Of a stretch of DNA of 64,000 nucleotides, positions 1-16,886 are shown one piece after another. The DNA is taken from positions 97,725 to 161,724 of the forward strand of contig CAZSHG010000004.1 in the NCBI GenBank assembly GCA_964606695.1, written 5' to 3'. The notes below the pieces were generated by a model. That model searched no databases. It was not told the origin of the DNA and saw only the letters and a program-made list of their open reading frames with translations. How positions within the stretch are numbered: position 1 is the stretch's first letter; each line of letters starts with the position of its first letter. The DNA is from an uncultured bacterium. GTDB taxonomy: Bacteria; UBP14; UBA6098. The translations under genes and the position numbers were made by a program.

Positions 1-484
1 TACGCGGATTGCCGTTACTTTCGTGGTATGCCCGAATCAGTAGCAGACCTGCGAATTCGCCGTGAGCGCCCGCCGCTGGTTGAAGCGTGATAGCGTCGTG
101 CCCAACTATCTCGCAGAGCATCTCCCCCAACTGCGCCATGAGTTCGATAGCGCCGGAAGCGAATTTGCTTCCCGTTAGCGGATGAAGTCCGGTAAAGCCC
201 TTGTTGGCGGCGGCGGACTCGTTCGCTTTGGGATTATATTTCATCGTGCAACTGCCGAGAGGATAGAATCCTTTGTCCACGTGATGATTCAGGTTGGACA
301 ACCTGACGAAATGCCGCATGACATCGATTTCGGCCAATTCCGGCAAGCCTATATCGCCCTTTCGACGCATATTATCTGGAATATTTTCCATAGTTTCCGG
401 GACGTCCAGTTCCGGCAAATTTGTCCCGCGAACGCCCGAACGTGAAAGTTCGAAGATCGTCTTTTCGATTATTCTATCCGCCAT
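1..484 (-). CDS. gcvPB: Glycine dehydrogenase (decarboxylating) subunit 2 (GcvPB), N-terminal part only. The gene runs off the window start, with the ATG at 484..482 on the minus strand.
   Basis: Manual minus-strand translation from 484 gives MADRIIEKTIFELSRSGVRGTNLPELDVPETMENIPDNMRRKGDIGLPELAEIDVMRHFVRLSNLNHHVDKGFYPLGSCTMKYNPKANE..., a typical GcvPB N-terminus. The start overlaps the upstream gene's stop (TAATG). It is not in the ORF track because the ORF is cut by the window edge. Confidence 0.75.
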   Translation of the reverse strand, partial: MADRIIEKTIFELSRSGVRGTNLPELDVPETMENIPDNMRRKGDIGLPELAEIDVMRHFVRLSNLNHHVDKGFYPLGSCTMKYNPKANESAAANKGFTGLHPLTGSKFASGAIELMAQLGEMLCEIVGHDAITLQPAAGAHGEFAGLLLIRAYHESNGNPR

Positions 485-2457
485 TATTCTACCTCTTCAG
501 GTTCTACATTTTTTTCCAGTATTATTTTCTCGAGTAATATCATCCGATTTTTCGGGGATTTATACGCCCGCAGTAAATCTCTCGCGACGGAGTAATCTTC
601 TGTCTCGATCCAGCAATCACTAATCTTAAGAGTTATGTCATAAGTAACGTAATCGCCGTCCTGAGAAGAATTTACGGTTATCTCGCCGAAATTATTTGAT
701 ATAGACATCGGTTCGCTGACCCATGCAATTCGATATCCCGGCGGGATTTTGACATCGAAATGATATTTCTCCTCGAAGGGCGTCGAGAGCACAAGAGGTT
801 CTTCGCGTTCGTCGAGGCTCGTAACGATTTCCATAGTCGCAAAATCCAGAGGGTTTTCCGGGAAATTGAAGATCATCATTTCATCCTGGATAAAGGCGTA
901 TTCTTCCGTTTCGAAATCGACTTTCAGTGTCGGTGTATCGCCGAGATTATCGATACCTTCAATCTCGAAAGGTTTTTCACCCACCAGTTTGCCTCCACCG
1001 AGATTGGACACGAAACTCTCGACTTTCTGTTCTCGTCTTCGCGGCGATGCGTCGTGGAAAATATCCCGGTAATCTATGGCATAATTGCCGAAGAAGGCGG
1101 CGGCCATACTTCCGGTCATCTCGCCCCTTTCACCTATTTCGATATCGAAACCGAGGACAATATTATTTTCCCCGGAATTTATTTTCGGCACCTCGACGAG
1201 TTCGCCTTTGCCTGGACTGACCAGCAGTGCGGTCTCGCCGTCAAAGCCGGGTAAGTAGCCTGCTGGCGTGTATTCGTCCTCCGTCCAGAGCCAGATTCTC
1301 TCGCCGTTATCCGGGTCGTTTACGGTAACTATCATCCTCGATAACTGCCCTATGGCCGGAACGTCTTTTTCAATTTGCACGTTGCGCGGCGAAAGCAGTG
1401 CGATTTTCGGATCGAAACCACTTGCTTTCAGCAATGCAGAAAGGACTACGGTTCTGTCGCGAGTATCGCCGTAGCCGTTTTCGAGGACTGTGGAAGCTTT
1501 GTTTGGTATATATCCAGCGTCGCCGAGTTCCAGCTCGATGAACTTGATATTCCGCGCCACCCAGTATGTAAGCGAGTCTATGGCCGTTCTACCCGCGAGA
1601 GTTCCCAGAATCTCATCCGTTTTGGCCTGCACAGTCTCATCCACGAGAATCTTCGGTGCAACCCGCTTCTGGATATAGTCCGCGGCGAGTGTCCAGTTCT
1701 TTATCGTTGTGTAATACACCGCCGGGAATACGTTCCTGCCGCGCGGTCCTTGCGGTTCGGGCACAAAGCCATCGTAATCCTCGATTGTCCATGTATATAT
1801 GTTACCTTCTATCATCGGTTCCGGCGCGCCGTTGGCCGATTTGAAAATAAGTTTCCGACCTTCAGGGACGATTATCGTGAGCTTGTAAAATAGAATCGGA
1901 GTCTCCTGAGCGAGTATCTCGATGCCGCCGAAGGGCTTTTTAGGCGTGTCAGTCGTGATTATCTCCGCGCCGATATCGACTATGGACGAATCGTCCACGC
2001 CGGGTAAAGTTACAACGCGCTGTTGAAGGCTGGCATAGATTCCAGCTCCGGATAATCCGGGCGGTGTGATGTCGTTGATTTCTGTTTCATCGCTAACAAC
2101 CACAGTGAAAATCGAATCGACGGCGGGTGTTATACTTCTTGCGCGTGTGATATTAATCGATTCGAAATCCGTATCGTAGGTGTATTTGACATTGGACATC
2201 TCCTTTTTGCCCATGAAAGTCAGAACCTGCGTTACGTTACGCCACTCAATCTTATATCCGCCGTCCGGGAGAAGCTCGATAGTCTTCTCGCCCCATAAAA
2301 GGACGTGTTTGGCATCGGTGTAATCCTCGCGTGTAGGCGCATCGATCGCCATATCGAACGTCTTTTCGTCGAGAACAGTGTCGGCCTGAGAGGGCACCGC
2401 GTAAATTCCGGATATGATAATCGCGATTGAGAATAGTATAATAATCGTCCTTCTCAT
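484..2457 (-). CDS. Secreted transglutaminase-like / DUF3857-type protein (657 aa), with the expected catalytic Cys position substituted.
   Basis: N-terminal signal peptide MRRTIIILFSIAIIISGIYAVPSQA. The region GYGDTRDRTVVLSALLKASGFDPKIALL aligns with the transglutaminase-core G-x-C-x-D...L-R-x-x-G motif of the neighbouring paralog but has T in place of C. The ORF is translationally coupled on both sides. Confidence 0.55.
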   Translation of the reverse strand: MRRTIIILFSIAIIISGIYAVPSQADTVLDEKTFDMAIDAPTREDYTDAKHVLLWGEKTIELLPDGGYKIEWRNVTQVLTFMGKKEMSNVKYTYDTDFESINITRARSITPAVDSIFTVVVSDETEINDITPPGLSGAGIYASLQQRVVTLPGVDDSSIVDIGAEIITTDTPKKPFGGIEILAQETPILFYKLTIIVPEGRKLIFKSANGAPEPMIEGNIYTWTIEDYDGFVPEPQGPRGRNVFPAVYYTTIKNWTLAADYIQKRVAPKILVDETVQAKTDEILGTLAGRTAIDSLTYWVARNIKFIELELGDAGYIPNKASTVLENGYGDTRDRTVVLSALLKASGFDPKIALLSPRNVQIEKDVPAIGQLSRMIVTVNDPDNGERIWLWTEDEYTPAGYLPGFDGETALLVSPGKGELVEVPKINSGENNIVLGFDIEIGERGEMTGSMAAAFFGNYAIDYRDIFHDASPRRREQKVESFVSNLGGGKLVGEKPFEIEGIDNLGDTPTLKVDFETEEYAFIQDEMMIFNFPENPLDFATMEIVTSLDEREEPLVLSTPFEEKYHFDVKIPPGYRIAWVSEPMSISNNFGEITVNSSQDGDYVTYDITLKISDCWIETEDYSVARDLLRAYKSPKNRMILLEKIILEKNVEPEEVE

Positions 2458-4466
2458 TACGCATCACCCCCTTTTTCGAGTATAATCATCCCCTGACCGG
2501 CATTCTCCATTCGTTTGACCGCCTTTCGATAATCTGGATATTCGTCGGCAGGAATCACAGGCTTTTTAATCATAAAGGACGATTTATAAGTAACGACGTC
2601 GCCCTCCAATGTGTAATCCATTGCGAATGAAGATGGAGCTTCATCGAGCATAATCCTATCGGGAAGCGATTTTGCCGCGTAACCTCCGGGAAGCACGATT
2701 GTCTCTTCCAATATACTGCCAATTGTAAACTGTATGTTCAGGGGAAATTCCCTCTCCGTTAGAGTCGTTGTTTGGGTCAATAATAAACCGATTATATCGA
2801 AAGCGTAAGTCGATAGGGGCGATTTCACCAGAAGATAATCCCCCGCGACAATCGCGTAATCGGGTATCTCGTATTCGATCGTCATGTTCACGGGTTCCCA
2901 GAGGTTATCGATAGGCTCAGGGGAAACTTCGAGTTTTGTGATTTTTGCCGAGGGATGCACGGCATTCTTGACCATCTGCGTCCAGAATCTTTCCTGTTGG
3001 GTAGGTTCCATTTGCTGGAATATCAGTCGCAGAACCTGATCGTAAAAGCCTTTGGCGTTGATAGTTACAGCGCTCTTAAACGTTCCGTCGGGGAAGATTT
3101 CGCTGTTCGCTGTAATTTTGCCCGCCTGCGTTTCCGGCGGTAGAATCGGATGATACATCAGGTCCTCGCCCTCCGGCGTGCATATCAACGCGGCTTTCTT
3201 CATGTGATAGGCCGGAAGCATATCCATGCAAAGGGCGTCCGTAGGATCCATCCAGTGCTCGTTGCCCTCGCGGTCGTAACAAACGACTATCATGTGGTTG
3301 AACTGGTTCGCCGCAACCTCTTTATGCACGTGATTTAACGGATTCGATAACGCCACGTAGGATTTAAATCCCGCTTCTTCTAACATAACCGCCAGCAGGG
3401 CGGATTTGTCTTTGCAAACTCCGGCCTGTGCCTCGAAAGTCTCGCAAACGTCGTGCGGGGTGATCCCCTCCTTCGCACCGAGTGAAAGCCCGATGTAACG
3501 AATATCCTGCGCTGTGTAATACGCTATAGCGCGAATACTGTCGATGTCGCTTTTCTGATCCTTCACCAGTTCGGCCACTTTAGCTACTATAACTTCGTTA
3601 GCTATCATATTCGGTTGAGAAAGTTCGTAAACCTTGCGCGAATATTCCTGCCAGGTTACGTTCGATGCGAGGATTTTTGTCAGGAATTCGCTTACTGGCG
3701 GCATTCCGTCCTCGGTGATAGCCATCGGGAAACTGTCGCCTTCCCAATGGTAAATCCGCAGGGAATCCTCGATAATCTTTTCGGCGAAACTCACTCGTCC
3801 TTCCGGGTCATTGTATATTTTCCAGTTCATTTCCTCGGAATATGGCACCACGAGTGCGGCCTCCGCGTGCATTACGGGTTCGGTGCTCTGGAAACCGGCG
3901 CGGTAATCCATCATATCTTCCAACATTGGTTGGACGGTTTCGAACCTTATAGCGAACTCCAACCCGCATCCAACCTCGAGTTCCGGCAGATGGATCACCT
4001 TCTGGCGTAGGTTCGACCAGTAGATGTCCATCTCGGCGTAACCTTCGAGAGTTTCGTCGGTTATGTCCTCTTCCCCGACCGTTACTACGCTGGAATCGGG
4101 ATATATAACGCGGACGTAAATGATATCCAGCGTCATCTGCTGTGTATCGTAACCGATGGGAATCGTCGTGTAATCCTTGGTAGCTTTCATAGTGAGTAAT
4201 TTCGTCAGAGAGTAAGATGACGAAACCTGGTTGCCGTCTGGATGGAAATAGGAAGAATCGGACTGAAACACGGTAACTGTATGGGCATTCGGCCAATCGT
4301 GGCGCGCCCCGGCGGACTCAAGGAGTTGCATAATTTGCGGGGAAGCTTTAGTTACAGGCTCTCTCGACCATCGATCGATGAGGAACGCTTTGCCCCCACC
4401 ACAACCGGCCAGTATGAACGCCAGCGTAATAGCGATAAGGATTAGACAATTATTTCTCTTAAGCAT
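2457..4466 (-). CDS. Transglutaminase-like cysteine-protease-fold lipoprotein (669 aa, DUF3857-like N-terminal region).
   Basis: Lipoprotein signal with lipobox (LAFILAGCGGG). Transglutaminase-like core motif GVCKDKSALLAVMLEEAGFKSYVALSNP. The start overlaps the gcvPA stop by 8 nt. Confidence 0.65.
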   Translation of the reverse strand: MLKRNNCLILIAITLAFILAGCGGGKAFLIDRWSREPVTKASPQIMQLLESAGARHDWPNAHTVTVFQSDSSYFHPDGNQVSSSYSLTKLLTMKATKDYTTIPIGYDTQQMTLDIIYVRVIYPDSSVVTVGEEDITDETLEGYAEMDIYWSNLRQKVIHLPELEVGCGLEFAIRFETVQPMLEDMMDYRAGFQSTEPVMHAEAALVVPYSEEMNWKIYNDPEGRVSFAEKIIEDSLRIYHWEGDSFPMAITEDGMPPVSEFLTKILASNVTWQEYSRKVYELSQPNMIANEVIVAKVAELVKDQKSDIDSIRAIAYYTAQDIRYIGLSLGAKEGITPHDVCETFEAQAGVCKDKSALLAVMLEEAGFKSYVALSNPLNHVHKEVAANQFNHMIVVCYDREGNEHWMDPTDALCMDMLPAYHMKKAALICTPEGEDLMYHPILPPETQAGKITANSEIFPDGTFKSAVTINAKGFYDQVLRLIFQQMEPTQQERFWTQMVKNAVHPSAKITKLEVSPEPIDNLWEPVNMTIEYEIPDYAIVAGDYLLVKSPLSTYAFDIIGLLLTQTTTLTEREFPLNIQFTIGSILEETIVLPGGYAAKSLPDRIMLDEAPSSFAMDYTLEGDVVTYKSSFMIKKPVIPADEYPDYRKAVKRMENAGQGMIILEKGGDA

Positions 4467-5811
4467 TAAGAACCTCCGTCGCGACCTCGACGAAATTATC
4501 CATTTCGAAACGCGATCTCTTTTCAGTTACTGCAATCAGTAACTCGTTTTCCCTTTCGGGATAGAACTTTCGCATTGGAATGCCCGCCAGAAAACCCTCC
4601 GCCGCCATCGTCTCTACGAATTCCGTCGCAGACATGGGTAGTTTTACAGCGAATTCGCGGAAGAAGGGATCGTCGTGGAGTAATTCGATTCCATTTATTT
4701 CGGTGAGCTTTTTCGCGAGGTAATGCGCCTTATGATAGCACTGCGAGGATATTTCCACGAATCCTTTTTCGCCTACGAGCGACATGTAAACGGTTACCGC
4801 GAGAGCGCACAGAGCTTCGTTCGTGCAGATATTGCTGGTTGCTTTCTCGCGGCGTATATGCTGTTCGCGGGTTTGGAGCGTCATAACGAAACCGCGGGTG
4901 CCTTTGTCGTCCGTGGATGCGCCTATAAGGCGCCCGGGCATCTTGCGGATGTGCTTTTCCCTCGCACCGAAGAAACCGATATAGGGTCCTCCGAATCCGA
5001 CAGGATTGCCCATCGACTGGGCTTCGCCGACGGCGATATCCGCGCCGTATTCGCCCGGTGGTGTCAGCATACCCAGCGAAATCGGATCGACCGCGGCAAG
5101 AAGTTCCGCGCCGGATTCCTCGATGGCTTTATCAAAAGCGAAACCGTCCTCGATACATCCGACAAAATTCGGATTCTGGATTATCGCCGCGGCTATCGTA
5201 TTGTCGGCCATTTCGGCGAGTTTCGCGTAATCCGTAACGCCGCCCTTCGCGGGCACAGTAATCAGATCGATTCCGGTGGGATATGTATATGTCCGCAGGA
5301 CTTTCAAATAATGGGGATGAAGATGTTCGGGCACCAGGATTTTTTCGCGGCGTTTCTCGCCTACCGCCATCAACACGGCTTCCGCGAGTGCCGTCGGGCC
5401 GTCATACATGCTGGCGTTGGCCACGTCCATCCCGGTTAATCTGGCAATCAGCGACTGGAACTCGAATATCGCCTGAAGGGTTCCCTGCGATACCTCCGCC
5501 TGGTAGGGAGTGTATGCCGTCGCGAATTCCGGTCTCGAGGTTATATGTTCCACCGCCGCCGGGATATAGTGATCGTAAGCCCCCGCTCCGAGGAAACTCA
5601 CGAAAGCGTTCGAATCTGCATTTGTCGCCGATAACGCCCAGGCTTCGGCAAGAGCTTCCATTTCGCTTATCGGCTCGGGAAGTTTCGGTAATCGTTGCGA
5701 TATTAGTTCATCCGGGACGGCATCTCGAATGAGTTCTTGAATCGAACCATAGCCCATCGCCTCGAGCATCGCCTTGCGGTCCTCGGGCGTGTTTGGTATG
5801 TATCCCATAAT
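4459..5811 (-). CDS. gcvPA: Glycine dehydrogenase (decarboxylating) subunit 1 (GcvPA). The likely true start is MGYIPNTPEDRKAML at 5811; the ORF track extends it to 5904.
   Basis: Strong family-level similarity across the whole ORF (MGYIPNTPEDRKAMLEAMGY..., PLP-dependent fold). The ATG at 5811..5809 lies 5 nt after the gcvH stop. Confidence 0.9.
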   Translation of the reverse strand: MMGYIPNTPEDRKAMLEAMGYGSIQELIRDAVPDELISQRLPKLPEPISEMEALAEAWALSATNADSNAFVSFLGAGAYDHYIPAAVEHITSRPEFATAYTPYQAEVSQGTLQAIFEFQSLIARLTGMDVANASMYDGPTALAEAVLMAVGEKRREKILVPEHLHPHYLKVLRTYTYPTGIDLITVPAKGGVTDYAKLAEMADNTIAAAIIQNPNFVGCIEDGFAFDKAIEESGAELLAAVDPISLGMLTPPGEYGADIAVGEAQSMGNPVGFGGPYIGFFGAREKHIRKMPGRLIGASTDDKGTRGFVMTLQTREQHIRREKATSNICTNEALCALAVTVYMSLVGEKGFVEISSQCYHKAHYLAKKLTEINGIELLHDDPFFREFAVKLPMSATEFVETMAAEGFLAGIPMRKFYPERENELLIAVTEKRSRFEMDNFVEVATEVLNA

Positions 5812-5815
5812 ACTC

Positions 5816-6190
5816 CTACTCGATAAGATCCGTGTAATCTTTCGCGGAAAGAAGCTCGTCCAGTTCGGTAGTATCGGACATCTTAACCTTGATGAACCAG
5901 CCACCCTCGTAAGGCTCCTGGTTGACCAATTCGGGTGTTCCCTCGAGAGATTCGTTTATCTCCATAACCTCTCCGGAAACAGGCGCGTAAACGTCATTTA
6001 CGGCCTTTACCGCCTCAATCGTTCCCATCGATTCGAACTGGGTAACCATATCTCCTATTTCGGGTAACTCGACGTAAACGACGTCGCCCAACTCGCTCTG
6101 GGCATAATCCGTAATACCGATTGTGGCGATATCGCCATCGACCTTTACCCATTCATGTTCTTTGGTGAATTTTAGATCCTGAGGAACCAT
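5816..6190 (-). CDS. gcvH: Glycine cleavage system H protein (lipoyl carrier).
   Basis: 124 aa with KFTKEHEWVKVDGDIATIGITDYAQSELGDVVYVELPEIGD and the lipoyl-lysine context ESMGTIEAVKAVNDVYAP, typical of GcvH. Confidence 0.9.
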   Translation of the reverse strand: MVPQDLKFTKEHEWVKVDGDIATIGITDYAQSELGDVVYVELPEIGDMVTQFESMGTIEAVKAVNDVYAPVSGEVMEINESLEGTPELVNQEPYEGGWFIKVKMSDTTELDELLSAKDYTDLIE

Positions 6191-6311
6191 GTCTCCTCCT
6201 CTTCTGGTTATATGACCTATCGGTCATTTTCAACTCATTTAGAACCTTAAATATAGGAATCGTTTTATTAATTGCAAAGTATTTTTCGGCAAATATATCG
6301 CTAAAAACATC

Positions 6312-6341
6312 TTGCGAATCCCGGTAATCGAATTATATAAT
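6312..6341 (+). promoter_or_regulatory. Candidate sigma70-like promoter (TTGCGA, about 17-18 nt spacer, TATAAT) for the small-ORF/comEC operon.
   Basis: TTGCGA at 6312-6317 and TATAAT at 6336-6341 sit in the divergent intergenic region between gcvH and the comEC operon. The match is to the E. coli consensus, which may not hold for this lineage. Confidence 0.2.
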
Positions 6342-6367
6342 TAAATGTCAACGATTAGACCCTGGAA

Positions 6368-6634
6368 ATGGAACCGAAAATGAGACGTGAACAATTATTA
6401 CAGGCCCTTGAAGAACTTGCCGCAAAAATCGGCATCGAAGTCCGTTATGAAAAAATGGGCACGATTTTGGGTGGGCTTTGTCGTATCCACGACGGTAAAG
6501 TTATACTCATCAATAAAAACCTTTCCGACGCGTCCAGGGTCGAATTGCTTTCCTCCGAACTTGCGCTGGAAAGCGAAAAACTCGAAAAGGTCTATGTTCT
6601 TCCTGAGGTTCGCGAAATACTTGGTCTGTCGTGA
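6368..6634 (+). CDS. Hypothetical small protein (88 aa), translationally coupled to comEC.
   Basis: ORF with no recognisable motif. Its stop overlaps the comEC start (ATGA at 6631-6634). Confidence 0.4.
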   Translation: MEPKMRREQLLQALEELAAKIGIEVRYEKMGTILGGLCRIHDGKVILINKNLSDASRVELLSSELALESEKLEKVYVLPEVREILGLS

Positions 6635-9087
6635 AACCCGCCAGGACTCCCCCAACACCTTTACTTATGGCCTTTGGTCTAATAGCGGTCGGTATCGTCT
6701 TAGCCAGGATGATATTTCCCCAGAGCGAAAAGGGCATTATCGTATTCGGTGCGATATCCATTCTCGCCTGCGTTGTAGCAATTCTGACGGCTTCATTCAG
6801 TAAAGGGAAAATCAAGCTGGCCGCCTTTATTACCATCGTTATTGGATTAATTTCGTTCGGCGGTTATCGTTACGAGCTGTGGAGCCGAATTCCAGAAAGC
6901 GACGTCAGTCGTCTCAACGGACGTGAAGTGCGGTTATACGGCGCAATCACAAGCGACATCGAACTTAGCGAAGATCGTCAGCGGTTCGAATTATCGGCCG
7001 ATTCGGTCGAAATCCAGGATACTATGGTCATCGCCATTGGTAAAATCCGCATTTATCTTTATCAGGCAAGACCACTCGCTTACGGCGATTATATAGCTAT
7101 TAACGTGAAACTCCAGGAACCCTGGCGCGCGACAAACCCTTATGCCTACGATTTCAAAAAATCCCTGGAATCCAAAGGAATCCGTTCGATTGCTTTCGTC
7201 TATCGGGATAGGAATGTTAGACTTCTCGATAGTTCCGGCGGAAGCTTCTTTTTATCGGACATCGTCAATCCCCTGCGCCGGCACATTGAAAAGACAATAG
7301 ACGCCAATCTTCACGGCGACTCGGCGGCACTGTTGAAAGGCCTTATGCTGGGGCTTGGACGAAAGCTCCCCGACGATGTCCGCGACGCTTTCGCAGATTC
7401 TGGAACGGTGCACATCCTTGCTGTCAGCGGTTTGCACGTCGGCATTATAGCCGGATTGGCGTGGTTACTTTTCGCTTCGATAATCCGTATTCCACGGGGA
7501 ATAAGCGCGGTTATGACAATCGTGTTGCTCGCGGTTTTCGCCGGGCTGGTTGGAGGAAGGCCATCAGTTCTACGTGCGGCTTTCATGTTCTCGATTATTA
7601 TCGTCGGTGCTTCGCTAAATAAGCCCCCCAATTTACTTAATTCGATAGGTGCGGCAGGCGCGGTTCTGCTCGCAATAAAGCCAATCTGGATAGGCGACAT
7701 AGGCTTTCAGCTTAGTTTCGGCGCTACGCTCGGAATAGCCTATTTATTGCCAAAATTCCAATCCTGGCTACCGGAAAAATATCAGAAAGCGAATTTCGCA
7801 GGAACATGGATCATTTCCCCATTCCTGGTTTCGCTTTCTGCAACCCTTGGCACCGCGCCGCTTGTGGCCTGGCATTTCCACCGTTTCCAGCTAATTGGCC
7901 CCATAGCCAACCTTGTCGTCCTACCGCCGCTTGGAATAATTATTGGTTACGGAATCCTGGCTGTGATATTCCAACCGATTTTGCCTTTTTTAACGAAACT
8001 TTTCCTCGCCGTAGATTGGTTATTCTTGAGGATTTACCTGCTTAATGCCGTGAAGTTTTTCGCGTCGTTACCATTTGCTTATTTGACATTTCCCCACCCC
8101 TCTTTTACCTGGGTGGTTTTCTATTATGTAGTCCTCGTCGCAAGCCCGGTATTGCTCCAGAAACTCAACCGAAAATATCTCGCGGCGATAGGTTACATAG
8201 CAATTACCGCGTTAGCCCTGTTGTTGGGCAGGATAACTTCGGTCGAGAGACTTGACGAGGACATTCGCGTAACATTTTTCGACATAGGCCAGGGCGATTG
8301 TGCATTGATTGAATTCGACGACGGGCGTGAGATGCTTATCGACGGCGGTCAACCAGGTAACGTGGATTTCAGTGTTGTGCCATATCTACAAGCACGGGGA
8401 TTAAAACGAATCGACGCAGTTGTGATGACCCACTCCGATGCCGACCACGTCGGCGGGTTACGCGACCTGCAAAACGATTTCGAATACGGCACGATCTATG
8501 TCCCATACGCAACTTACACCAGCAACCTGCATCGCCGTTTCATCGAATACGCCGATTCGCTCGGCACACTTGTCGAACTGCTTTCCCTCAGTGAACATAT
8601 CCACGATTTCCCGGAATTGGAAGTCCTCTGGCCGGATACGTTATCCGTATCGCCGGAAGGATCCCTTCTGGTGAATGCCAACGAGGGATCTATCGTTCTC
8701 ATGTTGAAATCGGGCGAAGCGGAAGTTTTCTTTGCAGGAGATATCGGTATCCCCACCGAACGAAGTATAGTCGAATTGGCGGACATCGAATGCGATGTCG
8801 TGAAAGTCCCTCATCACGGAAGTAAATACTCCACCGCCGAAGAGATGGTCAAAGAAACAACTCCTCTTCTGGCGGTAATCTCAGTCGGAGCTAAAAACCG
8901 TTTCGGTCATCCGGCGGATAGGGTTATCGAAGACTACAGAAAAGCCGGCAGTGAAGTCCTCCGCACCGATAAGCATGGCGCGGTGATTCTATCAATCGAT
9001 AAGGGTAAGATTAAATACCGAAGCTATCTTGGCAAATCCGGAGTCTTTAACGCAACCGACCAACCTCATCAAACAAACGTCGAATAA
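6631..9087 (+). CDS. comEC: DNA internalization-related competence protein ComEC/Rec2 (polytopic membrane channel plus C-terminal metallo-beta-lactamase domain).
   Basis: 818 aa with multiple TM helices. The competence-domain region (HILAVSGLHVGIIAG) and C-terminal MBL motif (VVMTHSDADHVGG ... VKVPHHGS) match the canonical ComEC architecture. Confidence 0.85.
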   Translation: MKPARTPPTPLLMAFGLIAVGIVLARMIFPQSEKGIIVFGAISILACVVAILTASFSKGKIKLAAFITIVIGLISFGGYRYELWSRIPESDVSRLNGREVRLYGAITSDIELSEDRQRFELSADSVEIQDTMVIAIGKIRIYLYQARPLAYGDYIAINVKLQEPWRATNPYAYDFKKSLESKGIRSIAFVYRDRNVRLLDSSGGSFFLSDIVNPLRRHIEKTIDANLHGDSAALLKGLMLGLGRKLPDDVRDAFADSGTVHILAVSGLHVGIIAGLAWLLFASIIRIPRGISAVMTIVLLAVFAGLVGGRPSVLRAAFMFSIIIVGASLNKPPNLLNSIGAAGAVLLAIKPIWIGDIGFQLSFGATLGIAYLLPKFQSWLPEKYQKANFAGTWIISPFLVSLSATLGTAPLVAWHFHRFQLIGPIANLVVLPPLGIIIGYGILAVIFQPILPFLTKLFLAVDWLFLRIYLLNAVKFFASLPFAYLTFPHPSFTWVVFYYVVLVASPVLLQKLNRKYLAAIGYIAITALALLLGRITSVERLDEDIRVTFFDIGQGDCALIEFDDGREMLIDGGQPGNVDFSVVPYLQARGLKRIDAVVMTHSDADHVGGLRDLQNDFEYGTIYVPYATYTSNLHRRFIEYADSLGTLVELLSLSEHIHDFPELEVLWPDTLSVSPEGSLLVNANEGSIVLMLKSGEAEVFFAGDIGIPTERSIVELADIECDVVKVPHHGSKYSTAEEMVKETTPLLAVISVGAKNRFGHPADRVIEDYRKAGSEVLRTDKHGAVILSIDKGKIKYRSYLGKSGVFNATDQPHQTNVE

Positions 9088-9144
9088 ACCAAATTTAAAA
9101 TTATTTCACTTCTAAATTGACAGGGAGAGGTATTTCATATAATA

Positions 9145-10431
9145 TTGAATATTATGAAAGAAAATCACCGCAAAACGGTTTTAGACAATGGGATTACTGT
9201 CCTATCGCTTCCTATGGCAGGCAGAGCCGGAGTTGCAGTCGGCGTCTGGCTGGATGTCGGTAGCAGAGACGATCCGCCCGGACGCGAGGGCATGGCTCAT
9301 CTCGTCGAACATCTTATGTTTAAAGGCACCGAGAAACGGACATCACTGCAAATAGCTCGAGAACTCGAATATGTCGGTGGGAGCGGCGATGCCTACACCT
9401 CCCGTGAAGAAACCTGCTACTACGCCTATGTCCCCTCGCGTGAACTTCCTAAAGCACTGGATATTATCGGCGATATGATAGCTCACTCACGCATCGACGA
9501 GGTCTCTTTCCAGCGAGAAAAAAGCATCGTCCTGGAGGAGATGGCGGAAGTTCAGGATTCGCCTCAGGAGATAGCGCAGGAGTATTTCCCCTCGATTCTG
9601 TTCGGCAATCATCCGCTTGGCCAATCGATATTGGGAAGCCCAGAAGGTGTGAAAGCAACTAAGCGGAACGATGTAATCGACTTCATGAACGCCAATTATA
9701 CCGCCGAAAAAACGTTAGTCGCGGCAGTTGGGAAAATCGAACATGGTGAACTCTGCGAACTCGCCGATAAATACATAAATCTTCCAAAGGGCATTTCAAC
9801 AACCTCTCAGCCCGCACCACCCCTAAAGCCGATAGGGGAAATCGGATTATTGAAAAAACCAGCCGCGCAGGTAAATATTATAATCGGCGGGAGACTTTTC
9901 CCTTTCAAAGACGAACTAAGATATCCCTTCGCAATACTCAATAAAATACTCGGGCAAGGGGCGTCGAGTTTGCTGTTTCAGAGGGTTCGCGAAGAAGCCG
10001 GTATCGGTTACGACGTCCATTCTTTCGACGAATATTTCAAAGATTCCGGCATGTGGGGCGTTTTTGGAGCTTTCGAATCGAAATCGGTTATGAGTTTCCT
10101 CAATATTCTCAGATCGACTATGGATGAGATTAATGACGGTCTTATCGATGAACAAATTCTGCGCGATACTATTAACGGGCTTTCCGGCAACGCGGTTCTC
10201 CAGAAAGATTCCATAAGCTCGATGCTGAACAGGCTCGCGGAAAACGAACTCCAATTAGGCCGATTTATCCCGGTAGAAGAGAGTATCAACAGGCTGAGAG
10301 AAGTAACGCCTGAACAGATTCGTGAACTCGCATCCGATTTATTCAACCCCATATCACTGGGCGGAATTGCAGTAGGGACTATACATCCAAAGGACTCGCC
10401 GAATTGGTTGAAATGGAAGGATATGGCATGA
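9145..10431 (+). CDS. M16 family (pitrilysin/insulinase-like) zinc peptidase.
   Basis: Inverted zinc-binding motif HLVEHLMFKGT (HxxEH). Length of 428 aa and overall M16 N- and C-domain layout. Confidence 0.85.
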   Translation: MNIMKENHRKTVLDNGITVLSLPMAGRAGVAVGVWLDVGSRDDPPGREGMAHLVEHLMFKGTEKRTSLQIARELEYVGGSGDAYTSREETCYYAYVPSRELPKALDIIGDMIAHSRIDEVSFQREKSIVLEEMAEVQDSPQEIAQEYFPSILFGNHPLGQSILGSPEGVKATKRNDVIDFMNANYTAEKTLVAAVGKIEHGELCELADKYINLPKGISTTSQPAPPLKPIGEIGLLKKPAAQVNIIIGGRLFPFKDELRYPFAILNKILGQGASSLLFQRVREEAGIGYDVHSFDEYFKDSGMWGVFGAFESKSVMSFLNILRSTMDEINDGLIDEQILRDTINGLSGNAVLQKDSISSMLNRLAENELQLGRFIPVEESINRLREVTPEQIRELASDLFNPISLGGIAVGTIHPKDSPNWLKWKDMA

Positions 10432-10874
10432 CTATTGCGCCGATTGTCAGAGTTAAACTGCTTCGCGACTGCGCATATGCACCCGAATTCATGAGTGACG
10501 GCGCGGCTGGAGCGGATTTGAGAGCATGTTTGAATGAGAGTATCGTTCTCGAACCCGGGGAACGTGCGCTTGTTCCAACCGGGATTATAATCGAGATGCC
10601 GCCGGGTTACGAGGGGGAGATCCGCCCGAGGAGCGGGCTTGCTGTTCGATATGGAATTTCACTGGTCAACTCGCCAGGCACAATAGATTCCGACTATCGA
10701 GGCGAATTAAAGATTATTATGATTAATCATGGCTACGAATCTTACGAGATAAACAACGGCGACCGAATCGCGCAACTTCTCATAAATAAAATCGAAAGAC
10801 CGAGATTTGAAATCGTGGATGAATTGACAGACACAGAACGAGCGAGTGGCGGTTTCGGTAGTTCCGGAAAGTAG
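10428..10874 (+). CDS. dut: dUTP diphosphatase (dUTPase). The likely start is MTIAPIV at 10428, an ATGA overlap with the M16 stop.
   Basis: Conserved dUTPase motifs (AGADLRA..., RSGLAVRYGISLVNSPGTIDSDYRGEL, C-terminal SERASGGFGSSGK). Confidence 0.9.
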   Translation: MTIAPIVRVKLLRDCAYAPEFMSDGAAGADLRACLNESIVLEPGERALVPTGIIIEMPPGYEGEIRPRSGLAVRYGISLVNSPGTIDSDYRGELKIIMINHGYESYEINNGDRIAQLLINKIERPRFEIVDELTDTERASGGFGSSGK

Positions 10875-10879
10875 GCAAA

Positions 10880-12100
10880 ATGTTAGAGACATTAAAAAAG
10901 ATTGCCTTTGAAAGGGTCGGCGGAACGCCGGAGGAATTAGAAGCTTTTGAAATCCTTGCCGGTGAAGTCGGTAAAAGGGATGTGAAAACTCATATGGAGC
11001 CTTTCAAAGTGCGCACATTTCGACTCGGTGAGGGTTCGGTTGAAATTCTATCCGATCCACCTCAGAATTTCAAAGCCAATCCTATCGGCCTAACCGGTTC
11101 GGTGGACACGACGGCGGCGGCACGATATGTCGAAATCCCCAACCTCGATAATATGGACTCCGCAGAGGGTGAAATTTTGTTGCTCCATAAAAGAATGACC
11201 TACGATATCTACCGTAACCTGACTCGCCTGAAACCCGAAGCCTTCATCTTGATTAACGAACCCGGTAAAACCCCCGGCTATCCGATAGTTAAAGAGTCAC
11301 TTATCGATGAATTCGGCAAAATTCCCGGCGCGGTTATGAGTTACGAGGCCGCGATAAAGGTGATTTCCGCAAAGGATGAAAAAATCAGACTCAAACTCGA
11401 ACAGAGCGATTTCGAAGGCACCAGCCACAACCTTATAGCCGAAATCCCCGGCGAAATCGAGGAGGAGATAATCGTAATCGGCGCGCACGCGGACAGCGTG
11501 GCCAGCTCCCCCGGCGCTGTCGATAACGGCGCTGGATGCGTCGAATTGCTCGGTCTTATCGGCCATTTCGCAAAGGAGAAACCCCGCAGAACTTTGCGTT
11601 TCTGCTTCTTCGGAAGCGAGGAACTGGGATTGCTGGGAAGCCGCGAATATGTCCGCGCACACGAGGACGAACTGGACAAAATCCGCCTGATGGTCAACCT
11701 GGACATGGGCGGCGATATTTTCGGCGAGGACAAGGCGATTGTCACCGGAGCCAACGAGCTCGCTAACTACATCGACTCGCGCAATAAGCTGGTGGGCATG
11801 GGATTACGCGTTTCTCGAGGCACATACTCCAGCGACAATATGCCCTTCGCCCGTGAGGGCATCCCTGCGGTCAGTTTCGGCAGATCCGGCCTTGGCGCAA
11901 GCCTGGGCCATTCTCGTGACGACGACATGCGCAATGTCGATGAGGAATCCCTCCGCTCGATGGCAAATATCGCCCTCGCTTTCGTCAAGGAAATAGCCAA
12001 CGCCCGCACTATCCCCTTCGAACGCACCGTCCCGGACGACATTATGGAGAAAATCGACGAATATTTCTACAATAAAACCGGCGAGAAGAGGCAAAAGTGA
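10880..12100 (+). CDS. M28 family aminopeptidase (PA-domain type).
   Basis: Zn-ligand context IGAHADSVASSPGAVDNGAGCVELLGLIGHF ... FFGSEELGLLGS ... NLDMGG, typical of M28. Confidence 0.8.
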   Translation: MLETLKKIAFERVGGTPEELEAFEILAGEVGKRDVKTHMEPFKVRTFRLGEGSVEILSDPPQNFKANPIGLTGSVDTTAAARYVEIPNLDNMDSAEGEILLLHKRMTYDIYRNLTRLKPEAFILINEPGKTPGYPIVKESLIDEFGKIPGAVMSYEAAIKVISAKDEKIRLKLEQSDFEGTSHNLIAEIPGEIEEEIIVIGAHADSVASSPGAVDNGAGCVELLGLIGHFAKEKPRRTLRFCFFGSEELGLLGSREYVRAHEDELDKIRLMVNLDMGGDIFGEDKAIVTGANELANYIDSRNKLVGMGLRVSRGTYSSDNMPFAREGIPAVSFGRSGLGASLGHSRDDDMRNVDEESLRSMANIALAFVKEIANARTIPFERTVPDDIMEKIDEYFYNKTGEKRQK

Positions 12101-13695
12101 GATTCACGCCATATATAATTGCACTGGTCATATCCTCGACTCTATTCGGTATCGTCTGCGGACTGCCGGAAATCGCCAGGCGACGCGCACCTTTGATGAT
12201 GCCCCGCCCTACTTCTCTGCTATATTTTTACGACTCACCGGATAGCAATTTCAGAATATGGTATAATCCCAAATCCGAGGACGAGGTAAACGGCATAGAC
12301 GCTACCGATTGCGATGCCAGCGGTTACCCGGACTGGGTGGAACATGCCGGACAATATCTCGAAAAAACCCGTGCTTATTTAGTCGATACCCTCGGCGCGA
12401 GACCGCCTATCCCCGATTCGGGACGTGGCGGGGACGACAAAACCGACGTATATTTCGTCAACCTCGGATCCAGTCTATACGGCATGACTTACACCGACGG
12501 CACTCTCCCGGACGGCACGGCGTCGGCCTTCGTGGAAATAGAAAACGATTTCGCGGGACACACCGAATATGCCGGAAGAGAAACCGATGCTCTGGCGGTA
12601 ACATGCGCACACGAATTCTTCCATACCATTCATTTCGCATATACCACCGAAATGAGCAATGTCTGGTGGATGGAAGCCACGGCGGTCTGGTCGGAAGAAC
12701 AGAATTTCCCGGAAATTAACGACTATCTGAACTACCTCGATTATTTTCAGGACTACCCCTCAACCGCCCTCAACGACGACACGCCATCGGGTAGGATTTA
12801 CGGCACAGTGTTGCTCCCGATATTTATCGGAATGAACTACGGCGAACGCGCCGTTATCGATATCTGGGAACGTGTTTTCGACATGAACATCTATCAGGCT
12901 CTGGAAGACTGGGCGGATTCCGTAGGCGTAAATCTGAACGACTTTTACGGCGAATTTGCGCGATGGAATTTTTTCGTTGGCGATAATTATCGCGGGTGGG
13001 GCTACGATGACGCTGAGATAATGCCCGAACCCGCGATAGTCGATACTCATAATATCCCCGAAACATTGCCCGGTGCAGGTGCCGCAACTTATATTGATCT
13101 TTCAATCTTCCTGGATGATTGGGGCGAAGATTACACTGGCGGTTTCTGGGTTGAACTTTCAGGCGGCGACAGCGTAGGTGCCCTTATGGTAGGGCTTCCG
13201 CCCGCCGAAAATTCCGATACACCTGACACAAATGTCAATATTCTGAACGTCCCGGACACTATACCGGGAATATGGCGTTACGATGCCGTCGTTGCATCGA
13301 TTGGACATGTGAAAAGCCAGTTTATCGTCCCGGCACACCTCGGCGACCTTCTTACCGGCCCGGCGACTTCGGCAAAGGTCGAGAGATTCCATAGCATCGA
13401 AGAGCCACCTTATCCAAATCCTTTCTACTACGGCGGCGAAAGCGAATATGTCTATTTCCCTTACAGCCTCACCGAAAACAGCGACATCGCCCTTTATGTC
13501 TGGACATCCGCCGGAGACCTTGTATATTATATGGAAAACGCAACCAGCCGGGGGCTTCATCTCACAACAAGCGGCTCCCTGGGTTGGCAACCGCGAAATA
13601 TGCACGGAGAAAGACTCGCAACCGGTGTTTACGTCTATCGACTCGCAGTCGAAACCGACGAATACATCGGGAAAATATCGATAATAAATCCATAA
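12097..13695 (+). CDS. Secreted putative zinc metallopeptidase (HExxH) with a C-terminal T9SS-type (Por_Secre_tail-like) sorting domain.
   Basis: GTG start overlaps the M28 stop (GTGA). N-terminal signal peptide. HEFFH motif (TCAHEFFHTIHF). C-terminal about 80 aa begins YPNPFYY ... VYVYRLAVETDEYIGKISIINP, typical of the T9SS C-terminal domain. Confidence 0.55.
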   Translation: MRFTPYIIALVISSTLFGIVCGLPEIARRRAPLMMPRPTSLLYFYDSPDSNFRIWYNPKSEDEVNGIDATDCDASGYPDWVEHAGQYLEKTRAYLVDTLGARPPIPDSGRGGDDKTDVYFVNLGSSLYGMTYTDGTLPDGTASAFVEIENDFAGHTEYAGRETDALAVTCAHEFFHTIHFAYTTEMSNVWWMEATAVWSEEQNFPEINDYLNYLDYFQDYPSTALNDDTPSGRIYGTVLLPIFIGMNYGERAVIDIWERVFDMNIYQALEDWADSVGVNLNDFYGEFARWNFFVGDNYRGWGYDDAEIMPEPAIVDTHNIPETLPGAGAATYIDLSIFLDDWGEDYTGGFWVELSGGDSVGALMVGLPPAENSDTPDTNVNILNVPDTIPGIWRYDAVVASIGHVKSQFIVPAHLGDLLTGPATSAKVERFHSIEEPPYPNPFYYGGESEYVYFPYSLTENSDIALYVWTSAGDLVYYMENATSRGLHLTTSGSLGWQPRNMHGERLATGVYVYRLAVETDEYIGKISIINP

Positions 13696-13705
13696 CGGAG
13701 GAAAT

Positions 13706-14740
13706 ATGAACTGGAAACTTCTGGAAGAGCTTTGTAATACCCCCGGAGTCCCCGGGCACGAGCGCAAGGTGGCCGAGATTTTCAAGCGCGAAGCCGAGGG
13801 GATCGCGGTGGAATCGTGGTTCGATAACGTCGGCAACTGCATAGTGCACGTCGGCGGGGAAGGCCCGGTAGTGGCGCTGGACGCCCACACCGACGAGGTC
13901 GGTTTCATCGTCTCGCACGTCGATGACGAGGGCTTCATTCGCGTGGTCCCGCTGGGGGGCATCGACCCGCGAGTTTTTTACGCGCAACGCGTCGTCGTCC
14001 ACGGCACCGAGGATTTGCCGGGCGTTGTAGGCGCGGTTCCGCCGCATCTTCTGAACAAAAACGCCGACCGCGACAAGGCAGTGCCCATCGAGGACGCCTT
14101 CATCGACCTGGGCCTCCCCGGGGATAAGGTCAAACAGAAAGTCCGCATAGGGGACGTGGTCACCTTCGACAGCAAGTTCGAGGATTTAGGGGACGTGGTC
14201 ATCGGGAAGGCGTTCGACGACCGGCTGGGCCTGTTCGTCATCCTCGAGGCTATTAAAAAAGCTAAGAAAATCGCCTGCGACCTCTATCTGGTGGCGACGG
14301 TTCAGGAGGAACGCGGCCTCCGGGGCGCGACCTGCGCGGCTTTCACCGTCAACCCGGACATCGCCATCGCACTGGAGGGGACTTTTGCGAACGACCTGCC
14401 GGGAGTGCCTTCGCACAAGCGGCTGGCCACGCAGAACAAGGGCGCAGAACTCCGCATCACCGACCGCGCCGTCATAGCCGACCGCGCGCTGGTGGACTAC
14501 CTGGCGGAAATCGCCGACGGCGGCGGCATCGACCACCAGTTCGTGGTGAAAAACGCCGGCACCACCAACGCCACCGCCATCGAGCTTGCCTCCGGAGGCA
14601 CCCGCGTGGCGGCAATCTCCGCGCCGGTGCGATATATTCACAGCCCCATCGGCATGGTCAACAAGCACGACATCGAATGCCAGATAGACCTCCTGGCGAA
14701 ATACCTGGAAGTCGCCGACAAAACCCCGCCGCGGCGGTAG
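13706..14740 (+). CDS. M42 family (FrvX/CelM-like) aminopeptidase. The gene is distinctly GC-rich compared with its neighbours.
   Basis: 344 aa with M42 architecture (GHERKVAEIF..., ALDAHTDEVGF, GKAFDDRLG, EERGLRGA). Its last about 70 bp and terminator are duplicated downstream. Confidence 0.8.
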   Translation: MNWKLLEELCNTPGVPGHERKVAEIFKREAEGIAVESWFDNVGNCIVHVGGEGPVVALDAHTDEVGFIVSHVDDEGFIRVVPLGGIDPRVFYAQRVVVHGTEDLPGVVGAVPPHLLNKNADRDKAVPIEDAFIDLGLPGDKVKQKVRIGDVVTFDSKFEDLGDVVIGKAFDDRLGLFVILEAIKKAKKIACDLYLVATVQEERGLRGATCAAFTVNPDIAIALEGTFANDLPGVPSHKRLATQNKGAELRITDRAVIADRALVDYLAEIADGGGIDHQFVVKNAGTTNATAIELASGGTRVAAISAPVRYIHSPIGMVNKHDIECQIDLLAKYLEVADKTPPRR

Positions 14741-15680: not shown

Positions 15681-15783
15681 ACCCGGCGACGCCCAATTCG
15701 CCGACGGCGGCGACATCGAATGCCAGATAGACCTCCTGGCGAAATACCTGGAAGTCGCCGACAAAACCCCGCCGCGGCGGTAG
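15681..15783 (+). pseudogene. Degraded duplicate of the 3' end of the M42 peptidase gene, in frame through the TAG at 15781-15783. It probably carries an internal deletion relative to the intact copy.
   Basis: The stretch ttcgccgacggcggcgacatcgaatgccag fuses two sequences that lie about 150 bp apart in the intact M42 gene (atcgccgacggcggcggcatcgac at about 14507 and cacgacatcgaatgccag at about 14665). The identical last 24 codons and stop follow. Confidence 0.5.
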
Positions 15784-15841
15784 TTACGCTACCCCTAAAA
15801 ATTTCCCCCGGCTCCCGCGCTCCGCGTGGGGGCCTTTTTTA
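15711..15841. repeat. Direct repeat copy 2 (131 bp, identical to 14668..14798), including the duplicated terminator.
   Basis: Identical string on direct reading. It is immediately followed by an RBS and ATGCACATCACAA, the start of the next gene. Confidence 0.85.
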
Positions 15842-15891
15842 ATTCTTGCACTCAATACCACTATGCTGTATTTTGTTTTCAGGAGGCCATC

Positions 15892-16788
15892 ATGCACATC
15901 ACAATCGAACAAAACAAAGTCATCGTCAACCTCGACGAAAACGAGTTCCCAGCCTTCGAGGCGATGTTTCGGAACCTCGAACTGGACAAATTCGTCCAAT
16001 GCGATTTTCGGGATTTCGATTTCGGGGATTACGGATCGAAGCGAAAGCTCCTGCCTATGCACCTATGCCGAACAATCGGCGAGGCGAACCTTGGAAGCGA
16101 CCCCTTCGCAACCGTGTCGCTCTATCCCTTCTGGAAACACGGTTTTGCTTTTGGGGCGGATGATAACCTGATAATCGCGCCGGGAGTGGAGGACCCACAC
16201 AAGAAAGCCGTTGCCGCGGACGAGTTCGGCATGGGCTTCTGTTGCTGGGCGATGGAGGAGCTGTTCAACTGCGACACCTGGGCGGACTGTTCCGCGCTGA
16301 TAAAGATGGGCGCGGTGTTTCCGGTGGGAACGAAACGCCCGGATTTCGTATGCACCCTCCCCGACGGCTCCCTCGGCGTGTTCGAGGCGAAGGGCACGAC
16401 CGGCACGGCGGGCAACCTCGCGCTAAGTCAGGGCAAAATCCAGACTCAGGGCATAACCGCAGACGACCCAATCTCCCTGCGCGTGGTTGTAGGATGCGCT
16501 CTCGGCGGCGACACCACGCGAATAGTTCTCCTCGACCCGCCCCCCTCGACTCCCCTCGGGGACCGGCCCTCGAACGGAGAACGGGACGAAAGGTCGTTGA
16601 GCGGAGCCGAAACGAACGGTGTGAAAACCAACCTGACCGCCGACCTCGTAAAACGCGCGGCGAAAGGGATGCGCACCCAGACCCAGACGCTGCAAACCGT
16701 ATTCCGCTCCCCCACCGCCGAACTCAACCTCAAACGCAAGGATTACAAAGACGACAAAGGCCACGGCTGGCTGGAGATTAATCGATAA
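15892..16788 (+). CDS. Hypothetical protein with a PD-(D/E)xK nuclease-like core and a GC-rich, Pro/Thr/Arg-rich C-terminal tail. The likely start is MHITIEQ at 15892; the ORF track extends it to 15826.
   Basis: The motif arrangement AADEFGMGF ... RPDFVCTLPDGSLGVFEAKGTTG fits E ... PD ... ExK of the restriction-endonuclease fold. This is a pattern-level inference with no family assignment. The 3' third of the gene (about 16400-16790) is very GC-rich. Confidence 0.4.
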   Translation: MHITIEQNKVIVNLDENEFPAFEAMFRNLELDKFVQCDFRDFDFGDYGSKRKLLPMHLCRTIGEANLGSDPFATVSLYPFWKHGFAFGADDNLIIAPGVEDPHKKAVAADEFGMGFCCWAMEELFNCDTWADCSALIKMGAVFPVGTKRPDFVCTLPDGSLGVFEAKGTTGTAGNLALSQGKIQTQGITADDPISLRVVVGCALGGDTTRIVLLDPPPSTPLGDRPSNGERDERSLSGAETNGVKTNLTADLVKRAAKGMRTQTQTLQTVFRSPTAELNLKRKDYKDDKGHGWLEINR

Positions 16789-16848
16789 ACAATGGTATGT
16801 TAATAGCTTCGATGAGAATGGATTAAATATATAAACTTCATAAACAGC

Positions 16849-16877: not shown

Positions 16878-16886
16878 TGAATTAAG

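Follow-up and report, generated by a model that had tools for sequence, protein, structure and literature searches.

A predicted envelope gene pair between the glycine dehydrogenase subunit genes of an uncultured bacterial lineage

Why should two genes for predicted extracytoplasmic proteins lie between gcvPA and gcvPB, the genes for the two subunits of a single cytoplasmic enzyme, the glycine dehydrogenase (P-protein) of the glycine cleavage system? The question is raised by a contig of an uncultured bacterium assigned to UBP14 (GenBank assembly GCA_964606695.1, contig CAZSHG010000004.1), of which a stretch of 64 kb, referred to here as the window, was analyzed. In this window gcvH and gcvPA are followed by two genes for transglutaminase-like proteins, TG1 and TG2, and only then by gcvPB. 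The answer that we consider probable is one of hitch-hiking in an old, vertically inherited operon: an envelope module would have been inserted once and would be co-expressed with the gcv genes, with a link to glycine that is most likely historical and regulatory and not biochemical in nature.

Gene order and junctions of the unit

The minus strand carries all five genes in the order gcvH, gcvPA, TG1, TG2, gcvPB, and both gene calls and family matches confirmed this order, which had first been proposed from an inspection of the letters and open reading frames (ORFs) of the window (hereafter the original prediction). The gene gcvH (6190..5816) encodes the lipoyl carrier H-protein (TIGR00527, 171.8 bits with a cut-off of 115.85; PF01597, 1.5e-46); its product contains the lipoyl-lysine motif EAVKA within TIEAVKAVNDVYAP, and the gene has a strong Shine-Dalgarno sequence (AGGAGG) ahead of it. 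Subunit 1 of glycine dehydrogenase (aminomethyl-transferring) is encoded by gcvPA (5808..4459), the product of which matches the NF001696 equivalog over its full length (1-447; 610.4 bits, cut-off 364) as well as PF02347 (9e-135), and the ATG at 5808 agrees with the N-termini of its orthologs (MGYIPNTPEDR). TG1 (4466..2457, 669 aa) is a predicted lipoprotein composed of DUF3857, Transglut_core and a weak DUF3858, while its paralog TG2 (2457..484, 657 aa), with DUF3857 and DUF3858, is predicted to be secreted and to be a pseudoenzyme. The last gene, gcvPB (484..<1), codes for glycine dehydrogenase subunit 2 and is represented by its N-terminal 161 codons before the edge of the window is reached. 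The fragment scored 195.8 bits against NF003346 (cut-off 441), with E = 1.1e-57 over model positions 7-163, and it shares 86% identity with the beginning of a full-length ortholog of 488 aa in the related locus L001. A second ortholog in the same position, in locus L081, likewise has 488 aa and carries GDC-P, Aminotran_5 and GcvP2_C domains.

The junctions between these genes are narrow throughout. From the TAG of gcvH (5818-5816) to the ATG of gcvPA (5808-5806) the sequence gives a gap of 7 nt, which corrects the 5 nt reported earlier. The remaining junctions could be read directly from the sequence as previously described: gcvPA and TG1 overlap by 8 nt (ATGCTTAA, 4466-4459), and TG1/TG2 and TG2/gcvPB each share a single nucleotide of a TAATG, at 2457 and at 484, respectively. 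Each start codon is preceded by a Shine-Dalgarno sequence of the GGAG or GAGG type located within the upstream gene, and in GC content, GC3 and codon usage TG1 and TG2 resemble the neighboring host genes. In the interior of the operon, matches to promoter and terminator consensus sequences did not rise above the expectation from shuffled sequence. Taken together, the co-orientation, the near- or overlapping junctions and the lack of internal sites above expectation would fit a single operon. In accordance with the earlier observation that gcvT is missing upstream of gcvH, no gcvT-like sequence was detected anywhere in the 64-kb window. A glycine riboswitch of the RF00504 type was not found either, since there was no Rfam match at the gathering score in the window and none with E <= 1 in the interval 6150-6700, and no other Rfam RNA family was present near the operon.

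Recurrence and age of the arrangement

A scan with a TG1 profile of one genome per GTDB species yielded 80 loci (L001-L080), which were checked by tblastn with the five window proteins, and further loci were added through exact-protein look-ups. The gcv-TG unit was found on about 15 further independent contigs (L001-L004, L006, L008, L009, L011-L013, L081, L082 and L163-L165) that span metagenome-assembled genomes from NCBI, JGI metagenomes and Logan assemblies. The complete order gcvH-gcvPA-TG1-TG2-gcvPB characterizes L001-L004, with TG1 proteins 65-79% identical to that of the window; among these loci L003 is labelled UBP14, and the copy of the unit in L002 ends within TG1, where the contig ends. 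The same five genes in the same order occur in L006, labelled Zixibacteria (TG1 43% identical), and variants of the unit occur in L008, L009 and L011-L013 (TG1 35-40% identical). The added loci derive from JGI and Logan (L081 and L082), from NCBI assembly GCA_015657875.1 (L163) and from JGI (L164 and L165). In nearly all of these relatives the junctions are overlaps or gaps of less than about 125 nt, the larger gaps being 228 and 385 nt in L165 and an apparent 259 nt before the gene that follows TG2 in L008.

In the TG1 tree as well as in the TG2 tree the embedded loci formed one clade, just outside of which branched L005, L007 and L014, three loci in which the pair is not associated with gcv genes. 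A GcvPA tree of 80 sequences (12 embedded and 68 background) likewise united the 12 embedded sequences in an exclusive clade. Three subclades appeared alike in the GcvPA and TG trees, the first comprising the window and L001-L004, the second L006 and L163, and the third L009, L011, L165, L013 and L164; the order of branching among the three differed across the GcvPA, TG1 and TG2 trees. Because GcvPA, TG1 and TG2 of the embedded loci each constitute one clade with a similar internal topology, they point to a single ancient insertion that was inherited vertically. Moreover, GcvPA identity within the embedded clade drops to about 49%, which is almost as low as the 43-52% observed in comparisons with unrelated lineages and shows the arrangement to be old. 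The genes flanking the unit vary between subclades, and the unit itself is retained. It belongs to one deep-branching uncultured lineage, the members of which carry NCBI labels that include UBP14 and Zixibacteria; T9SS sorting domains in neighboring genes fit an FCB-type organism.

These observations also bear on the possibility that the arrangement is an artefact or a recent event, i.e., the result of a misassembly, a frameshift or a recent foreign insertion equipped with its own promoters, outcomes that the original prediction had itself named as refuting it. Apart from the metagenome-type contig and the truncation of gcvPB by the window edge nothing was found that would speak for such an explanation. 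Misassembly is ruled out by the recurrence of the same gene order in assemblies made independently in several projects and with several pipelines, and all ORFs are intact and the overlaps exact. A recent, strain-specific or horizontal insertion is ruled out by the native composition and codon usage of TG1 and TG2; in addition, both genes co-diverge with GcvPA, and promoters would find no space at the overlapping junctions. An explanation of this kind consequently retains virtually no probability, and the conserved lineage-specific arrangement that had been suggested as one way to account for the gene order is substantiated by about 15 independent contigs with co-diverging GcvPA, TG1 and TG2.

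As a background for this gene order served a metagenome scan with a GcvPA profile, which recovered at least 80 relatives with 43-52% identity, of which 70 were informative for the position of gcvPB. Among the matches listed, gcvPB was located directly downstream of gcvPA in 51 of these 70 loci (73%), followed after intervening genes in 3, and was absent from the downstream flank in 16; none of the 70 listed loci had TG or S41 protease genes. With 51 of 70 listed loci adjacent, the proximity of gcvPA and gcvPB represents the majority state and not a rule. The earlier statement that the two genes are neighbors in most bacteria is correct to this extent and overstated as a rule, given the 3 interrupted loci and the 16 without gcvPB. 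In two of the interrupted loci, which belong to unrelated lineages, a thioredoxin-like/TPR (YfiO-like) gene is situated between gcvPA and gcvPB (L095, 2470-3108; L150, 10278-11078), in the latter case together with two small ORFs, so that this junction has accepted other inserts elsewhere. Among the matches listed, gcvT was found nearby in 36 of 80 background loci compared to none of the 15 embedded loci, and the gcv set is incomplete at the locus, as a T-protein gene is lacking both in the 64-kb window and in the 15 related loci; it may be located in another part of the genome.

One subclade has an additional gene in the gap. A gene for a PDZ-S41 C-terminal processing protease directly follows TG2 in L008 (4245-5957), L009 (11015-12739), L013 (10966-12702), L164 (12987-14723) and L165 (13193-14941). 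In L008, L013, L164 and L165 it lies upstream of gcvPB, resulting in three envelope genes between gcvPA and gcvPB. In L009 the series gcvH-gcvPA-TG1-TG2-S41 is continued by a gene for a 4'-phosphopantetheinyl transferase (ACPS; 12787-13170) in place of gcvPB, and no gcvPB was found within the next 3 kb. By parsimony on the GcvPA tree the S41 gene would have been gained once. Its accretion suggests that TG1 and TG2 work in envelope proteolysis and constitutes the first functional hint for the pair.

The transglutaminase-like pair

TG1 and TG2 are paralogs, as had been supposed, sharing 23% identity over about 620 residues (E = 1e-36). In TG1, PF01841 (Transglut_core) was matched with 27.2 bits (cut-off 23) and DUF3857 with 76.5 bits; the DUF3858 match of 18.4 bits remained below the cut-off of 27, and the fold of the protein still matches the structure 3KD4 over its whole length. 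TG2 matched DUF3857 (72.1 bits) and DUF3858 (44.7 bits), and the Pfam scan gave no PF01841 match for the TG2 of the window. The two proteins also differ at the catalytic positions. The triad Cys351-His391-Asp407 of TG1 is invariant in 45 of 45 orthologs from tandem pairs. In the TG2 of the window, Thr replaces the catalytic Cys (GDTRDRT) and Arg replaces the His, and among 45 TG2 orthologs the Cys position is never occupied by Cys and instead by T, P, S, E, I or A among other residues, with R, E, D, K, N and Q being the most common at the His position. The same division was found in 22 natural fusions of TG1 and TG2, in which the N-terminal half possesses C/H/D in 22 of 22 cases, while the C-terminal half lacks the Cys in 22 of 22. 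TG2 is thus predicted to be a catalytically dead paralog of TG1, and by their residue patterns the two make up an ordered enzyme/pseudoenzyme pair. Of the two "protease-fold" proteins that had been described earlier, TG1 retains Transglut_core and the triad, whereas TG2 has lost Cys and His, and only TG1 can be catalytic.

Both proteins are predicted to leave the cytoplasm. The N-terminus of TG1 includes an LAGC lipobox (FILAGC, followed by GGG), and a Cys at the lipobox position is present in at least 90% of 20 aligned TG1 homologs and visible in the N-termini of the relatives, which would make TG1 a lipoprotein. TG2 starts with a signal-peptide-like segment, MRRTIIILFSIAIIISGIYAVPSQA before D (ending SQA before D), and would be secreted. 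An AF2 model of TG1 was obtained with a pLDDT of 88 and a pTM of 0.84, the N-terminal helix being of low confidence. In a Foldseek search with this model the sole whole-length relative in the PDB was 3KD4 (E = 1.7e-35, TM 0.81 on target), and the core also resembles the structure 3ISR; a characterized whole-length relative was not among the matches. Partial Foldseek matches to N-domains of M1 aminopeptidases and to OST subunits were due to the beta-sandwich only and were rejected. When the PDB was searched by sequence, TG1 alone gave no match, and the TG1 profile and TG2 matched only 3KD4. Literature searches for DUF3857, DUF3858, 3KD4 and the Pfam accessions returned passing mentions and no functional study, and those for UBP14 and for Zixibacteria with glycine cleavage returned nothing on TG function or on this gene order. 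Our best guess is that TG1 is a specific envelope hydrolase, either a protease or an amidase.

The pair is by no means restricted to the lineage of the window. Tandem TG1-TG2 genes also occur in loci with the labels Bacteroidales, Cloacimonadota, Eisenbacteria, Marinimicrobia and others (for example L038, 6932-10743). Fusion of the pair in the same order into one ORF, mostly of about 1250-1330 residues, was seen in 22 loci with the labels Verrucomicrobiota, Kiritimatiellia, Planctomycetota, Lentisphaerae and others, mostly PVC (for example L030, 6932-10690, and L021, 6956-10807). Since such natural fusions exist, TG1 and TG2 are predicted to act together. In other phyla the module adjoins housekeeping genes of unrelated function, in many cases co-oriented with them and separated by small gaps. 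Loci labelled Bacteroidales have NadA, a MORN-repeat protein and an RluB-like pseudouridine synthase upstream and DnaG downstream; in those labelled Victivallaceae or Lentisphaerae the neighbors are an MBL-fold protein, PyrK and PyrD, in Eisenbacteria-type loci a PPDK-like response-regulator protein, in L014 GlnA, and in L047 and L074 a HemN-like radical SAM protein. It seems to be a habit of the module to embed itself among core cytoplasmic genes, and no recurrent glycine or amino-acid theme emerged among its neighbors in the other phyla examined. Because the module keeps such different company there, a biochemical link to glycine is not indicated, and the suggested functional tie of the extracytoplasmic proteins to glycine catabolism was not borne out.

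This evidence is of importance for a second explanation of the unit, according to which it is a regulon for protein and amino-acid catabolism with TG1 and TG2 (and S41 in some lineages) as extracytoplasmic peptidases and glycine cleavage matched to the supply of released glycine. The explanation would account for the integrity of the unit across a deep divergence in spite of changing flanks, for the accretion of a second protease gene in the same gap and for the papain-like Cys-His-Asp triad kept in TG1. Peptidase genes are also found nearby, namely those for M16, M28 and M42 peptidases in the cluster divergent from gcvH and one for a C10 peptidase beside gcvH in L165. However, the module is found elsewhere next to RluB-like, NadA, DnaG, PyrD/PyrK, GlnA and PPDK-like genes without an amino-acid theme, the sister lineages L005, L007 and L014 carry the pair away from gcv, and the operon includes neither a transporter nor another catabolic gene. 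Furthermore, the pairing of an enzyme with a dead paralog would be more typical of specific processing than of a protease for bulk nutrition, and searches of the PDB, of structures and of the literature found no characterized homolog. We therefore regard a catabolic regulon as rather unlikely.

The divergent cluster just mentioned extends from 6368 to 14740 (+) and begins with a gene for an 88-aa protein with a weak IrrE/M78-like match, followed by ComEC and by M16-matching, dUTPase-sized, M28-matching, 532-aa unknown and M42-matching ORFs, which were equated with genes of L081 by order and length; the order of the cluster is conserved in L081. The ORF of 344 residues at 13706-14740 (+), taken from its position and length to correspond to the Peptidase_M42 gene of L081, is a compositional outlier (GC 0.63 and GC3 0.81, compared to a GC of 0.50 for the window and a GC3 of about 0.55 for its neighbors), which could be due to recent acquisition or very high expression. 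Further away, a gene for a 959-residue Eco57I/MmeI-type restriction-modification methylase (16887-19766, +) has a GC of 0.42, suggesting a mobile defence gene. A single ORF of 5268 residues (29607-45413, -) encodes dozens of Big_1 and Invasin_D3 Ig-like repeats and resembles a giant adhesin-like surface protein; it is located 25 kb from the operon, and nothing ties it to TG1.

Regulation, retention and comparison with known systems

A consensus scan flagged a sigma-70-like sequence upstream of gcvH (6250..6278, -) with TTGCAA as -35 and TATATT as -10 box, which would function as the promoter of the unit. When seven gcvH upstream regions from the subclade of the window were aligned (mean column identity 58%), the TTGC core of the -35 and the TATAnT core of the -10 box were invariant. 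Between the conserved -10 box and the Shine-Dalgarno sequence of gcvH lies a perfect 16-bp palindrome, ATGACC-N4-GGTCAT (6212..6227; 22-37 nt upstream of the gcvH ATG), with invariant arms and a variable spacer in the same alignment. It occurs in the same position in L001 (5242-5255), L002 (3637-3650), L003 (5193-5206), L004 (227-240), L081 (8244-8257) and L082 (1603-1616); the gcvH upstream regions of the more distantly related embedded subclades lack it. Elsewhere among 165 loci there were just 2 scattered matches, compatible with chance. The 64-kb window holds this one perfect copy, and a second convincing site that might indicate a regulon was not found in it. As RNA, the palindrome would form a hairpin of 6 bp in a leader with a minimum free energy of -12.7 kcal/mol (z = -2.6) that leaves the Shine-Dalgarno sequence free. 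The element may thus be either an operator-like site or a 5'-leader hairpin, and a protein-binding operator is favored over a purely structural RNA because the arms are invariant without compensatory changes. The conservation of promoter and palindrome supports a single regulated promoter for the unit in the subclade of the window.

Possible regulators are encoded close by. In L081 a block downstream of gcvPB (15683-17581) contains an NYN-domain gene and genes for a PadR-family and an HTH_3 regulator. Homologous ORF clusters lie at the corresponding position downstream of gcvPB in L001 (12667-13830), L003 (12503-13674) and L004 (8274-8810), which indicates that the block is conserved in the subclade of the window; at the locus itself it would fall outside the window. 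The PadR and HTH_3 products are candidates for factors that bind the palindrome.

The conserved palindrome has to be considered also with regard to a third explanation, repair of the envelope under glycine stress, in which the operon would respond to glycine: the gcv genes would remove excess glycine, and TG1 and TG2 (together with the Ctp-type S41 protease in some lineages) would edit or turn over cell-wall components damaged by the misincorporation of glycine into peptidoglycan stem peptides. Excess glycine is toxic to bacteria and acts via the cell wall, where it replaces alanine in the peptidoglycan stem peptide, and S41 proteases of the Prc/CtpA type control peptidoglycan hydrolases with the help of lipoprotein partners in Escherichia coli and Pseudomonas aeruginosa. 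Both facts are compatible with this explanation, as are the arrival of an S41 gene next to TG1 and TG2 in the gcv gap and the operator-like palindrome, which suggests specific regulation. The case is nevertheless circumstantial in its entirety, including the action of TG1 on peptidoglycan; in other phyla the module is unlinked to gcv or S41, S41 clusters with it in just 3 of 80 genome loci, and the window has no glycine riboswitch recognizable by Rfam. We consider such a repair function very improbable. Hardly more credit is given to the wider proposal of a glycine-responsive envelope protection, in which a palindrome-binding transcription factor would switch on the gcv genes and the periplasmic hydrolase/pseudoenzyme pair (plus a Ctp protease in some lineages) in order to edit or turn over cell wall or envelope proteins affected by glycine. 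If true, it would give a widespread uncharacterized pair its first physiological role.

The hitch-hiking of an envelope module, which we prefer, can be described in the following steps. In the ancestor of the lineage a single insertion would have placed TG1 and TG2 between gcvPA and gcvPB, TG1 acting as a lipoprotein hydrolase of the transglutaminase-like Cys-His-Asp type and TG2, the catalytically dead secreted paralog, probably as its non-catalytic partner, since other phyla have both as parts of a single fused polypeptide. Transcription of all five genes would most likely start from one promoter upstream of gcvH, with translation coupled at the overlapping junctions, so that the envelope pair would be made whenever the P-protein is made. 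The module may persist because its removal from between two genes whose products form an obligate heteromer would be difficult without cutting gcvPB off from the promoter that drives it. Later, a second insertion would have added the S41 C-terminal processing protease in one subclade. The co-regulation contained in the original prediction is in keeping with this sequence of events, as a single promoter is the natural reading of the overlaps and agrees with the conserved promoter and palindrome; the functional part of that proposal, the tie to glycine catabolism, is unsupported.

Several points weigh against this interpretation. L009 keeps the unit without a gcvPB behind it, and trapping between gcvPA and gcvPB can hence not be the whole reason for the linkage. 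That the unit has been kept while GcvPA diverged to about 49% identity and the flanks were scrambled could equally be the outcome of selection for functional co-expression, and a peptidase-rich neighborhood (M16, M28 and M42 in the divergent cluster) would fit a theme of protein and amino-acid catabolism. In addition, the trees were built by neighbor-joining only, without support values, and the single transcript was deduced from the sequence.

For glycine metabolism the arrangement appears to be of little consequence. It represents a stable, lineage-defining gene order in which envelope genes hold the two subunit genes at a distance of 4-6 kb, and it could serve as a synapomorphy-like marker of an uncultured clade. 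A better lead than the layout of the operon is the enzyme/pseudoenzyme pair, as the DUF3857-transglutaminase-DUF3858 family is found in many loci, among them FCB- and PVC-labelled ones, as a fixed ordered pair that is sometimes fused. Such a fixed combination of an active and a dead member makes for a strong, testable prediction of a putative heteromeric envelope hydrolase.

Among known proteins, TG1 has the same three-part architecture as BDI_1141 of Parabacteroides distasonis, a "putative protease" whose structure (PDB 3KD4) is the structural-genomics entry that defines DUF3857 and DUF3858. In 3KD4, however, Thr-Pro is found where TG1 has the catalytic Cys, and for this reason 3KD4 corresponds to the dead paralog of the TG2 type. 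A bioinformatic study lists both 3KD4 and LapG (4FGQ) among the transglutaminase-like cysteine proteases (PMC4866520). Similar to the LapG-type bacterial transglutaminase-like cysteine proteinases (BTLCP), which are periplasmic and cleave the adhesin LapA, TG1 is predicted to be extracytoplasmic and belongs to the same superfamily, with a transglutaminase-/papain-like core and a Cys-His-Asp triad. In contrast to LapG, it possesses a DUF3857 beta-sandwich and DUF3858, shows no match to LapG at the sequence level and is not located in a context of the LapD/LapA type.

With respect to the S41 gene, the subclade that has acquired it encodes a predicted lipoprotein, TG1, and its partner beside a PDZ-S41 protease, comparable to NlpI-Prc of E. 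coli and LbcA-CtpA of P. aeruginosa, in which a lipoprotein adaptor is combined with a Ctp protease. TG1, however, is a predicted transglutaminase-like enzyme and not a TPR adaptor, and S41 is absent from the operon of the window and its close relatives. The operon as a whole resembles the two-subunit gcv operons of the Bacillus/Thermus type in its split GcvPA and GcvPB accompanied by GcvH and in the co-orientation and tight packing of its genes. Operons of that type have the order gcvT-gcvPA-gcvPB and are often found behind a glycine riboswitch, whereas here gcvH leads, gcvT is unlinked, the riboswitch is missing and gcvPA is followed by 4 kb of envelope genes before gcvPB is reached. The layout is best described as a variant on the known theme of the two-subunit gcv operon, of modest importance in itself.

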